Positions 15,043 through 18,318 of a stretch of 64,000 nucleotides of DNA are shown here, one piece after another. This DNA comes from Nitrospirota bacterium (GTDB taxonomy: Bacteria; Nitrospirota; UBA9217). Every line of letters starts with the position of its first letter. The stretch's first letter is position 1. Location of the stretch: NCBI GenBank assembly GCA_963790205.1, contig CAWBNQ010000001.1, positions 480,001 to 544,000 of the forward strand. Direction: 5' to 3'. The position numbers and the translations under genes are program-made. The notes under the pieces were generated by a model. The model saw nothing but the letters and a program-made list of their open reading frames with translations, ran no database searches and was not told where the DNA came from.

Positions 15043-15402
15043 ATGTCAATGGACTTTATTGTACAATTCTATGAGACGGAAACAGGGGCGTGCCCCGTAC
15101 GGGAGTTTCTGGACGAGCTGAAACGCAGCGATCCGGACGACTTTGCGGCCGTGGTCGCCGGATTGGCGAAACTGCGGAACCGGCAGTATCACCGGGAGCC
15201 GCTGTCCAAAGCGCTCGGAGTCGGGCTCTACGAACTGCGCCACGTTGGCAAGCTCAACACCCGAGTGCTCTGGTTCTTTGTGAAGAACCGCAGGATCGTA
15301 GCGGTGCACGGCATCCGGAACAAGGGTCGCACCATTCCGGACCGTGATCTGACAACTGCGCGGGAACGGATGCGCGACTGGCTGAAAAGAGTGGAACGAT
15401 GA
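15043..15402 (+). CDS. RelE/ParE-superfamily toxin (HigB/Gp49-like)
   Basis: FYET..G..PV.EFL, GLYELR, RVLWFF...IV..HG motifs; toxin-first arrangement. Confidence 0.85.
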   Translation: MSMDFIVQFYETETGACPVREFLDELKRSDPDDFAAVVAGLAKLRNRQYHREPLSKALGVGLYELRHVGKLNTRVLWFFVKNRRIVAVHGIRNKGRTIPDRDLTTARERMRDWLKRVER

Positions 15403-15764
15403 AAAAGACGAATTTCGATAAATATCTCGACGAGCAATTGAAGGACCCGGAGTTTGCCGCCAGGTTCGAGCGCGCCGGAGAAGCCTGGGACGTGGCGCTC
15501 CAGATCGCCGCCCTCCGGAACGAAGCCGGGCTTTCCCAGAAAGACCTCGCGAAGCTCCTCAAAATATCCCAGCAGCAGATTAGCAGGCTGGAATCGCCCG
15601 GCTACGAGGGCCATTCACTGAGCACTCTTCGGCGGGTTGCCAAGGTTCTGCATGCGCGGGTGCGCGTTACCTTCGAGCCGGTGAAAAAAGTGACGCGCGT
15701 AGCTGAAGCAGCAGCTGTCTACCGTGCCAGGCGCGCAGCAGTCGGAAAGGCGAGAGCCAGATAG
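15399..15764 (+). CDS. XRE-family HTH antitoxin (HigA-like)
   Basis: LRNEAGLSQKDLAK...SQQQISRLE; ATGA overlap with the toxin. Confidence 0.88.
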   Translation: MKKTNFDKYLDEQLKDPEFAARFERAGEAWDVALQIAALRNEAGLSQKDLAKLLKISQQQISRLESPGYEGHSLSTLRRVAKVLHARVRVTFEPVKKVTRVAEAAAVYRARRAAVGKARAR

Positions 15765-16387: not shown

Positions 16388-16435
16388 TATAAACATTATA
16401 GACCTGACCCGGAAGAAGGAAATGTCAGGGTTAAA

Positions 16436-16566
16436 CGGGCTGTTGCCCAAATCACTTTGCGCCCAAAATGTCATTCTGAGCGCAGCGAAGAATCTCGCAT
16501 TTACAATATGATTGCAGACCCTTCACTTTGCTCAGGGTGACAAAAAATAGTTTGGGCAACAGCCCC
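16436..16566. mobile_element. 131-bp MITE with IS1182-type ends
   Basis: Ends CGGGCTGTTGCCCAAA and TTTGGGCAACAGCCCC match the IRs of the IS1182 at 37931-39531. Flanked by a TAAA duplication; internal TGTCATTCTGAGC...GCTCAGGGTGACA palindrome. Confidence 0.9.
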
Positions 16567-16671
16567 TAAAGAAGTGATAATCATATAAAGGGCACCTCCG
16601 AGCATACCAGAATCAGTTTGACTCTGATATGCTCATGGGAAAGACGCCAATCTTAACCCAGGAGGTGCTTA

Positions 16672-17691
16672 ATGAGATTATATGTTGGTTTAGATCTGCA
16701 TTCAAGCAACACGTATGTAGGCATCAAGGAAGAGAACGGCAAACGAGTATTCAAAAAGAAGTTGGCGAATGATCCCGAGGTCATTCTCGCTACCCTGAAA
16801 CTGTACAAGAAGCAGATCGTCGGTATTGTCGTCGAGTCCACATTCAACTGGTACTGGCTCGTGGACTTACTCATGGAGGAAGGCTATCCTGTTCATTTAG
16901 CCAATCCTGCGGAGATTCAAAAGTACACCGGGCTCAAGTACTCCGATGATCAGGACGACGCTTTCTGGCTGGCCGAGATGCTTCGCCTGGGAATTCTGCT
17001 GGAAGGATATATCTATCCGAAGGAGGACCGACCTGTCCGTGATCTCCTTCGGAAGAGGGCGCATCTGGTGAGAGTACGGACCTCACTGATATTAGGACTC
17101 CAGAACATCGTCACGCGCAATAACGGGATCAAGCTCAAGGTGAACGATGTGAAAGCGTTACGAACGAATCGCGTTGCCCCTTTTCTCGAACACAACGAAG
17201 ACCTGGCGTTGGCCGGCCAGGTGAGCAAGGATTCCATAGACTTTCTGACGCGCCAGATCAAAACCGTCGAGCGTGTTCTCGCAAAGAAAATGGATCTCCG
17301 GGAAGGATACGGAGGACTTCGTACCATTCCAGGAATCGGCAAGATCCTGGGTCTTACTATCATGCTGGAGACCGGCCCGGTCAGCCGCTTTGCTCAGGTC
17401 GGCAACTTCGCATCCTATTGCCGGAAGGTATCGACAAAGTGGATCAGCAACGAGAAAAAGAAGGGCAAAGGAAACAAGAAGTGCGGCAATAAGTATCTAG
17501 CATGGGCCTTCTCCGAGGCTGCTGAGATTGCACGTCGCGAAGATGAGGCCGCACGGGCATATTTCAACCGCAAGTCGCAGAAAACAAATAGGATGGTGGC
17601 GCATAACGCCCTCGCGCACAAGCTGGCGAGAGCGGCCTATTACATCATGCGGGACGGGGTATCATTCATGCCTGAGAAGTGCTTTGGATGA
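16672..17691 (+). CDS. IS110-family DEDD transposase/recombinase
   Basis: YVGLDLH, VESTFNWYW, K.SD..DAFWLA and TIPGIG motifs. Confidence 0.95.
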   Translation: MRLYVGLDLHSSNTYVGIKEENGKRVFKKKLANDPEVILATLKLYKKQIVGIVVESTFNWYWLVDLLMEEGYPVHLANPAEIQKYTGLKYSDDQDDAFWLAEMLRLGILLEGYIYPKEDRPVRDLLRKRAHLVRVRTSLILGLQNIVTRNNGIKLKVNDVKALRTNRVAPFLEHNEDLALAGQVSKDSIDFLTRQIKTVERVLAKKMDLREGYGGLRTIPGIGKILGLTIMLETGPVSRFAQVGNFASYCRKVSTKWISNEKKKGKGNKKCGNKYLAWAFSEAAEIARREDEAARAYFNRKSQKTNRMVAHNALAHKLARAAYYIMRDGVSFMPEKCFG

Positions 17692-17960
17692 AGGCTGGCT
17701 GGGACGGTGAACCAGAATTAGGGTTGGCAAAACCATGAGAAGTGATTGGTAATCCGTCCCACCCTTTTATATCGTTATCAGCGTCTTTACTGCCCGTGCC
17801 GCGAGCCTTAACCGGGTTGGCTTAGAGCCACGAGACGTGAAAAATCAATTGGACGCGGCAAGGAGCCGAAGATTTTCTGGTCCCGCGATGCGGGAAAGGG
17901 TCACGGATCAAGCGTTCCCGATGACCTTAATCCTGATGGGTGACTGGTGCAGTCAAGAAC
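17692..17960 (+). ncRNA. Predicted bridge/seek RNA with three guide-loop modules
   Basis: Stem-loops carry internal-loop sequences matching the element's target and donor junction (see findings). Boundaries are approximate. Confidence 0.7.
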
Positions 17961-18138
17961 TGACGCCGAAACCTAAAGAAACTGCGGCAAAGGTAAGGGT
18001 GACGATGACGAAAAGGCTCGCCGAGAAACGTTCCGTTTCTCGGCACAAGATAGCTTTTCCCATTGACAGTGTCCTTTAAATGGGCGACCCTCTTATGTCC
18101 CTAATTTTTTATTCGGCCAGCAGCCCTCCCCCTCCGGT

Positions 18139-18318
18139 TCACGCCGCCATTTTGAGTTTTTCCAGCAGCCCTTTCAGGACTTCCTCGTCCTGCTTAAGCT
18201 CATCCCGCAGTTCCTTTTTCATTCCTGACGCGATCATACCTCTGAGTTCCGGGATGGTGGTCTCCGCCAGTTCATTGACGAGCAACTCTTTTTCTTTCAG
18301 GTTCAAATTGACGTTCAT
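18139..18318 (-). CDS. Small hypothetical protein
   Basis: GAGGTG RBS; 59-aa helical, protein-like composition. Confidence 0.6.
   Translation of the reverse strand: MNVNLNLKEKELLVNELAETTIPELRGMIASGMKKELRDELKQDEEVLKGLLEKLKMAA

Follow-up and report, generated by a model that had tools for sequence, protein, structure and literature searches.

Two target-type loops and one donor loop in the predicted bridge-type RNA of an IS110 element from a Nitrospirota bacterium

The window analysed here, a stretch of 64,000 nucleotides from a Nitrospirota bacterium, holds an intact IS110 element at 16577–18084, whose features are all given on the forward strand and whose 3′ end contains three guide modules. 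The element encodes an intact recombinase of 339 amino acids (16672–17691) with the domains PF01548 (DEDD_Tnp_IS110) and PF02371 (Transposase_20) and a score of 176.6 bits against NF033542 (cut-off 140). Its residues D8, E55, D93, D96 and S259 align with the catalytic residues of IS621, giving an IS110 protein with both the DEDD residues and the catalytic serine. The genome (G000) carries two copies of the element in all, the second one (contig C1, 229291–230804) differing from the window copy at 3 bases. The element belongs to the IS110 family and its nearest named branch is ISGsu4-like. A second, distant IS110-type family (24% identity) is present on contigs C1 and C3 in six copies and a fragment. 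Upstream of the element, the window holds a Gp49/DUF891 and HTH_3 gene pair that resembles a type II toxin-antitoxin module (15043–15764; Pfam), a four-helix-bundle gene (PF05635; 15770–16215) with a repeated ACAAGTAAGAAGTAGGAATTA motif on its flanks, and a 129-bp element with 15-bp inverted repeats GGGCTGTTGCCCAAA (16437–16565) directly left of the insertion site. An empty AGACC-TG-ACCCGG motif lies at 16400–16412, 165 bp upstream of the element, and matches the site predicted for the second guide module at 12 of 13 positions.

The ends of the element can be read from its junctions with host DNA. The left target arm AGAAG (16570–16574), identical in both genome copies and equal to a guide of the first module (17738–42), is followed by the core dinucleotide TG (16575–16576, from junction comparison across homologs) and by the left terminal extension ATAATCATA (16577–16585), whose first two bases, AT, are the handshake partner of loop 1. 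The left sub-terminal inverted repeat TAAAGGGCAC (16586–16595) matches its right counterpart GTGTCCTTTA (18069–18078) at 9 of 10 positions. The right donor arm ATGGG (18080–18084) ends the element, and the right-junction core (18085–18086) and the host right target arm ACCCTC (18087–18092, from the sequence and comparison of both copies) follow. The left junction is AGAAG-TG-ATAATC in both copies; the right junction is ATGGG-CG-ACCCTC in the window copy versus ATGGG-TG-ACCCCA in the second. Among 107 parsed loci, duplicates included, 97 have TG at both junctions, as expected if the element inserts around a 2-nt core and duplicates nothing further, and all ten exceptions deviate at the right junction. 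Some sister elements have the left junction TG-TATAACC, and others have TG-TCC, TG-CAT or TG-CC on the right. On the evidence of these junctions the core is TG, and the GA core proposed in the first-pass annotation is rejected. Since the homologs fix the core as TG, the CG at the right junction is probably the target's own core, and the empty site of the window copy was most likely AGAAG-CG-ACCCT, entered through a U-G wobble. An empty AGAAG-CG-ACCCC site is present in the genome at C1:304176; a near-identical copy of the 129-bp element, near C1:304200, likewise adjoins an empty AGAAG-CG-ACCCC site.

By analogy with known IS110 junction promoters, the junction of a circularised element would carry a promoter, TTGACA-17 nt-GATAAT. 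The predicted −35 box TTGACA lies at 18063–18068, 17 nt from GATAAT in the circle, and ATAATCATA would complete this −10 box. The promoter scan is blind to such a promoter because it would be present only in the circle. No end-to-end joint of the element is found among the contigs from four sequencing runs. Loose contig ends start at 16570–72, and one stops at 18091, which is where loop-1 sites would place them; with their mismatches incompletely listed, they are not counted. The sole RNA contig covers 17252–17487, inside the recombinase gene (of 24 listed runs, one is recorded as RNA, its share being 0.10). A hairpin 3′ of the guide modules (18016–18046), at which the scan calls no terminator, is a possible 3′ boundary of the RNA.

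The three modules share the pattern G(A/G)(A/G)CC - guide - TGG - apical part - CC - guide - TG - two bases - TGG. Loop 1 (17697–17764), identified by covariation and site fit, is a free-standing target-binding hairpin with guides at 17718–24 (right arm) and 17738–44 (left arm and core) and the handshake AT at 17745–46. Loop 2 (17794–17863), a second target-type loop by covariation and site comparison, has guides at 17811–17 and 17833–39, the handshake AA at 17840–41 and then an A/U-rich spacer. Loop 3 (17864–17953), a donor-binding loop in a multibranch fold by junction match and covariation, has its 5′ guide at 17871–77, its 3′ guide ATGGG-TG at 17936–42 and the handshake AC at 17943–44. The strand ACTGC at 17789–17793 pairs with 17949–53 and forms an outer stem that closes loops 2 and 3 into a three-way domain. 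The six 13-mers listed in the first-pass annotation (17715–27/17733–45, 17808–20/17828–40 and 17868–80/17931–43) and both of its stems (17700–07/17754–61 and 17797–803/17854–60) are all where it had placed them.

This architecture is further supported by folding and by comparison of homologous 3′ ends. The region folds with z = −2.16, and over 39 diverse RNAs (the window RNA and 38 that are under about 90% alike) 90.1% of the cells of the proposed structure are paired, with changes on both sides in 26 of 50 pairs. None of 500 shuffles does as well; slid controls reach 32–50% pairing, a comparison in which the structure has the advantage of having been derived from the window sequence. Both-side changes affect 9 of 10 stem pairs in loop 1, 8 of 12 in loop 2 and 2 of 5 in the outer stem (helix 4), which is 92.8% paired. 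Helices 9–11 within the donor domain align poorly (62–76% paired), and RNAalifold by itself recovers loops 1 and 2 and mis-pairs the donor domain. Across the 39 RNAs loop 1 is a free hairpin on a variable linker, and loops 2 and 3 sit under one closing stem. A search of 16400–18200 against Rfam returns zero matches at E ≤ 1. Together, the fold, the homologs and the junction match described below bear out the description of a three-module, bridge-type IS110 3′ RNA in which two loops are of the target type and one is a donor loop.

The same three modules recur widely among homologs. Of 168 homologous loci (43–100% identity), 161 extend to the end of the protein and 139 have a parsable donor loop; among the 22 that lack one, 13 stop less than 300 nt beyond the gene, one (L039) has lost the RNA, and pattern misses, gaps or rearrangements account for the others, of which L061 and L076 show both target loops by eye. 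Both target-type loops parse in 125 of 132 distinct RNAs, and the remaining seven show both by eye. The closest named records are Nitrospirota MAGs, and others come from Thermodesulfobacteriota, Pseudomonadota, Planctomycetota and further groups. Seven plasmid elements at 32–51% protein identity, one of them annotated 'ISGsu4 family', show the same modules by eye, so that the architecture is seen, by eye, down to 32–35% protein identity. Three loci (L057, L058, L059) have identical four-module RNAs with three target-type loops, in which loop 1 is duplicated with different guides. One copy of this element sits at AGGTT, nearer the first loop, and two sit at AGACC, nearer the duplicated loop; because wobbles let either loop-1 copy reach AGACC, this split of sites is only a hint. 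Non-autonomous remnants in which the right end and the 3′ portion of the RNA survive also occur (L193, L194, L198, L201, L203, L207, L218, L221), and several have an intact-looking target site directly upstream, possibly from one-ended transfer. A nest of broken sister elements at about C1:300500–314700 (L178) contains pieces at 61–82% protein identity, among them a three-module RNA directed to AGACC-TG-ACCCTA, together with several isolated ends. The clade's commonest target, an inverted AAGA(C)(C/G)TGACCC motif, flanks Y1_Tnp genes (L176, L179 and other genome sites) and often has short tandem duplications after it; one (GACCCCAATGGCTT, twice) also lies to the right of the second copy.

Comparison of guides with occupied sites indicates which loop selects the target. 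We scored 5 left and 6 right positions, counting a wobble as half and allowing three right registers for both loops and for the null, over 121 distinct two-loop loci; L066 and L074 were dropped as misparsed, four-module loci were excluded, and the right flanks of 12 loci were left out, being assembly echoes or foreign junctions. Among the 78 loci with both flanks, loop 1 fits best in 69, the loops tie in seven and loop 2 fits best in two; adding the eight of 14 further loci that parsed gives 77, seven and two of 86. The result is similar for distinct guide sets (loop 1 best in 56, two ties and loop 2 best in two, n = 60) and with one vote per 85% protein cluster (25 for loop 1 and one tie, n = 26). 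Where the guides differ in the left arm, the site agrees with loop 1 at 83 positions, with loop 2 at 15 and with neither at six. The mean site score out of 11 over the 78 loci is 9.9 for loop 1 (shuffled 7.04 ± 0.15) and 8.19 for loop 2 (shuffled 6.74 ± 0.12), the shuffles overstating significance because the loci are related. Loop 1 matches the site at a rate of 0.85–0.92 from −1 to −5 and falls to background at −6. These sequence comparisons identify loop 1 as the site-choosing loop, reading five bases left of the TG core and about six to its right. The first module thus spells a real target, as first annotated, and covaries with sites; what changes is the core, TG instead of GA, and with it the site.

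An independent case for this role comes from two elements that target the RNA gene of a sister element. Loop 1 of L017 and L147 reads (G)TTAC-TG-CCC(A/G)TG, and at its right end each abuts CCCATGCC in the sister's RNA gene. The insertion, at TTTAC-TG-CCCATGCC (L017:1413–1438 and L147:2507–2532), falls between the sister's loops 1 and 2 and is seen at right junctions only; no left junction of this type of element is found in 64 genomes. Their own copy of the site is altered to TTTGC-TG-CCGTG. The window element has the TTTAC-TG-CCCATGCC site at 17787–17799.

The third module pairs with the donor. Its 3′ strand matches the donor junction ATGGG-TG-ATAATC exactly and its 5′ strand matches at 6 of 7 positions, as read from the sequence, so the annotated match to the circle junction holds for a junction centred on TG. 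Across homologs the 3′ guide equals the right end in 84 of 88 cases, ten ATGGA/ATGGA pairs among them, and the 5′ guide is nearly invariant, too uniform to reveal covariation of its own. Loops 1 and 3 thus both covary with DNA, which answers the covariation test that had been proposed for these loops, and on this comparison loop 3 is the donor loop. The handshake dinucleotide that closes it is the one with which the right target begins in 81 of 86 loci (22 of 26 where the flank is not AC). In AT-type elements, the two bases that open the left end recur as the handshake of loop 1 in 69 of 73 cases and as that of loop 2 in three of 73. As read from these matches, the handshake bases of loops 1 and 3 are such that they pair only after strand exchange in insertion. 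A subclade whose left end starts with TA (L003, L008, L021, L022, L112, L117 and relatives) has the left end TATAACC, one base longer, with the −10 box TATAAC; there loop 2 has the handshake TA in 11 of 11 cases and loop 1 lacks it, and loop 1 is still the best fit to the site. This subclade breaks a strict rule that the loop 2 handshake never matches the left end.

The feature behaves like a bridge RNA and agrees with the testable characters of IS110: the recombinase, insertion around a 2-nt core, a non-coding end with a conserved fold and a loop covarying with the target, and a donor loop matching the circle junction. It departs from the canonical two-loop form of IS621, with one target and one donor loop, in having two target-type loops. 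Like IS621 and ISCro4 (PMC11208160, PMC13626964; PDB 8wt6, 9t56), as far as the available text describes them, the element combines a DEDD and serine recombinase with a junction promoter (here predicted), and internal loops pairing with both strands of the DNA around a 2-nt core, each with a handshake dinucleotide that closes its second strand at the 3′ end. It differs from them in its three guide modules, the RNA downstream of the gene, the TG core and the multibranched donor loop, and the similarity of the recombinases is weak (E = 7e-11 and 8e-10). With the IS1111 seekRNA elements ISEc11, ISKpn4 and ISPa11 it shares, in the accessible text of PMC11187229, a non-coding RNA region downstream of tnp (here 393 nt, against 95 nt upstream), sub-terminal inverted repeats, the order of a top-strand match 5′ of a bottom-strand match, and a protein of 339 amino acids. 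That text describes a single target-matching module, inverted repeats of 11–13 bp lying 7 bp from the left and 3 bp from the right end, and a C-terminal GL-P----S(t)G motif; here the 10-bp repeats contain one mismatch and lie 9 nt from the left and 6 nt from the right end, and YCRKVSTKWISN (CRKV...SN) stands in place of the motif. The element thus falls outside a strict definition of IS1111. An annotated plasmid copy of an ISGsu4-like IS110 (a label taken from the plasmid annotation; 47.9% identity) shares the three modules and the TG core. The supplements of PMC11208160 and PMC11187229, where accessible, group ISGsu4 with ISGsu5, ISShfr7 and ISShwo5; for this branch the literature within reach yields no RNA description, one paper naming ISGsu4 once in a listing.

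The first-pass annotation had mentioned multi-loop forms in this family. In the parts of Durrant 2024 (PMC11208160) and its preprint that were available, the term refers to the multibranch structure of the donor loop alone, with no second target loop. Many bridge RNA models are reported to deviate from the IS621 fold (10.64898/2026.10.21.760802, in its accessible portion). As far as their text is covered, an RNA with two target loops is absent from that paper, from PMC11208160 and its preprint, PMC11187229, PMC13626964, 10.1101/2025.10.25.684509, 10.64898/2026.08.31.748434 and 10.1101/2025.05.14.653916, and from the review PMC13604230. We found no natural bridge RNA with two target loops in the literature within reach, figures, bioRxiv supplements, subscription papers and patents lying beyond it, and an earlier published drawing of a three-loop fold is possible.

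Loop 2 follows the target in a restricted way. At −1 its guide has A for site A in 9 of 10 cases and G for site G in 7 of 9, and it is independent of the site at −3 to −5. Loops 1 and 2 agree with each other at −1 and −2 at rates of 0.76 and 0.75 (shuffled 0.37 and 0.36), and at −5 at 0.61 (shuffled 0.59). In several lineages loop 2 tracks shifts of the right arm (TCCT, CATA, CCT, CCA, TCAA); over 29 non-ACC sites its right-arm score is 3.22 of 4, versus 2.53 for loops of the ACC clade. Abundant AAGACG-TG-ACCCTA repeats score 10 of 11 with loop 1 and 9 of 11 with loop 2 under the same scheme, which suggests that loop 2 reads loop 1's kind of site, more loosely. At protein identities of at least 95%, the guides of loop 2 differ by 0.6 of 12 nt and those of loop 1 by 1.66, and this slower change argues against a decaying copy. 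Loop 2 is conserved and, judging from these alignments, probably functional. Occupied sites record insertion only and are uninformative on the action of loop 2 itself.

The module had initially been taken to direct the recombinase to a second target, so that the RNA would be naturally multiplexed, with loop 2 independently choosing a second target class, here AGACG-TG-ACCCGG; perhaps loop 2 would serve as a fallback on the clade's common target as loop 1 explores new ones. We regard this as unlikely. The window loop 2 does match the 11-mer AGACGTGACCC, which occurs 11 times in the genome, and in two regions inspected AGACG- or AGACC-form motifs flank Y1_Tnp genes, a type known as RAYT, in inverted orientation. 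All 11 of these sites are empty, however, both genome copies lie at AGAAG, and the full predicted site AGACGTGACCCGG occurs nowhere in the genome, where one CG-core version is present. Loop 2's GG appears in none of four right flanks of elements with the same or near-identical RNA (L001, L006, L002, L089), and AGACG-TG-left-end junctions number zero in 64 family genomes, some of them incomplete, a count that falls short of demonstrating absence. Two loci fit loop 2 best (L018 and L038) beside the seven ties, and L074, outside the count, has an exact loop-2 left arm, AGATG; against these, loop 1 is favoured by 77 of the 86 loci and by 25 of the 26 clusters, and L018 could reflect a sister RNA acting in trans, since the site of L090 fits neither of that element's own loops well. 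The different sites of the four-module element, nearer different loop-1 copies, also fit multiplexing. With loop 2 following the site only beside the core, and no AGACGTGACCCGG in the genome, the data here give no support to two-target multiplexing.

The independence of its distal guide bases is also what would be seen if loop 2 mainly bound protein, recruiting or positioning the recombinase dimer, and owed its likeness to a target loop to descent from loop 1 or to occasional copying between modules and sister elements. Lags of loop 2 after recent retargeting (L007, L071, L080, L098, L099 and the window) point the same way, as do identical runs of 12–13 nt in some loop-1 and loop-2 strands (L013–16, L126), which copying would give. 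Block copying would not, however, be expected to follow the target at core-proximal positions alone, and the TG core copy of loop 2 is invariant in 39 of 39 RNAs. We consider such a scaffold quite doubtful.

The free hairpin of loop 1 on its variable linker, set beside loops 2 and 3 under their common stem, would also suit a hard-wired two-RNA direct transfer, in which loop 1, released by processing as a target-only seekRNA, starts the transfer of one end to a new site, and loops 2 and 3, as an ordinary bridge RNA, complete the second. As far as the accessible texts go, target-only RNAs dominate in ISEc11 (PMC11187229) and in CazIS110-1 (10.1101/2025.10.25.684509), and that of CazIS110-1 cooperates with the full bridge RNA; derivatives with loops 2 and 3 and the right end, lacking loop 1, exist as well (L193, L194, L198, L201, L218). 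The principle of a target-only loop working with a bridge RNA is thus shared, but the extra target loop of CazIS110-1 is described as a truncated copy of the same loop, whereas the one here is encoded apart, as a module that has guides and a handshake of its own. A complete insertion bridge made of loops 2 and 3 should moreover give more sites that loop 2 fits best, and we judge this scheme improbable.

The explanation that we favour, and hold to be reasonably probable from the sequence comparisons, is that of three paralogous modules in which loops 1 and 3 insert the circle and loop 2 acts at another step on the sites chosen by loop 1. The element would circularise, and the junction promoter TTGACA-17-GATAAT would drive the recombinase and the RNA, with a recombinase dimer on each module. 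Loop 1 with loop 3 would then insert the circle, and loop 2, in one three-way junction with loop 3, would read the same sites mainly beside the core. The step served by loop 2 would most likely be excision or copy-out, which carries about half of the weight of this explanation, and otherwise second-end transfer or target hand-over.

A role of loop 2 in excision or circle formation is suggested by analogy with IS621. There, each change that raised insertion (longer guides, an insertion-type handshake) lowered excision, according to the available text of PMC13626964, and loop 2 has the opposite profile, with less pairing and mostly without the insertion-type handshake. Three points weigh against this role: IS621 is able to excise with the donor loop alone (PMC13626964; 10.64898/2026.08.31.748434, accessible parts), so that a target-type loop may be dispensable for excision; the handshake of loop 3 is of the insertion type throughout and would still oppose excision; and in the TA subclade the matching handshake of loop 2 contradicts it. 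More specifically, and as a tentative proposal that we rate below an even chance, the RNA may encode direction control, loop 1, which has long guides and an insertion-type handshake, joining loop 3 in an insertion complex, and loop 2, which has short pairing and a neutral handshake, joining loop 3 in an excision or copy-out complex.

Guides favour insertion about 2,000-fold in the portion of PMC13626964 available, and how elements with such insertion-favouring guides leave a site is still debated. Descriptions of bridge RNAs give them two guide loops. A natural scaffold with three, which is widespread and whose two target-type loops differ in pairing length and handshake, offers a direct test of loop specialisation. 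Multiplexed or direction-switchable bridge editors could readily be built on it, and this clade may be misread by tools in which each RNA is scored for a single target loop. If direction control is indeed encoded in the RNA, the extra module would serve as a recombination directionality factor in RNA form, and loop 1 would be free for retargeting, for duplication, as in the four-module elements, and even for aiming at the RNA genes of sister elements.
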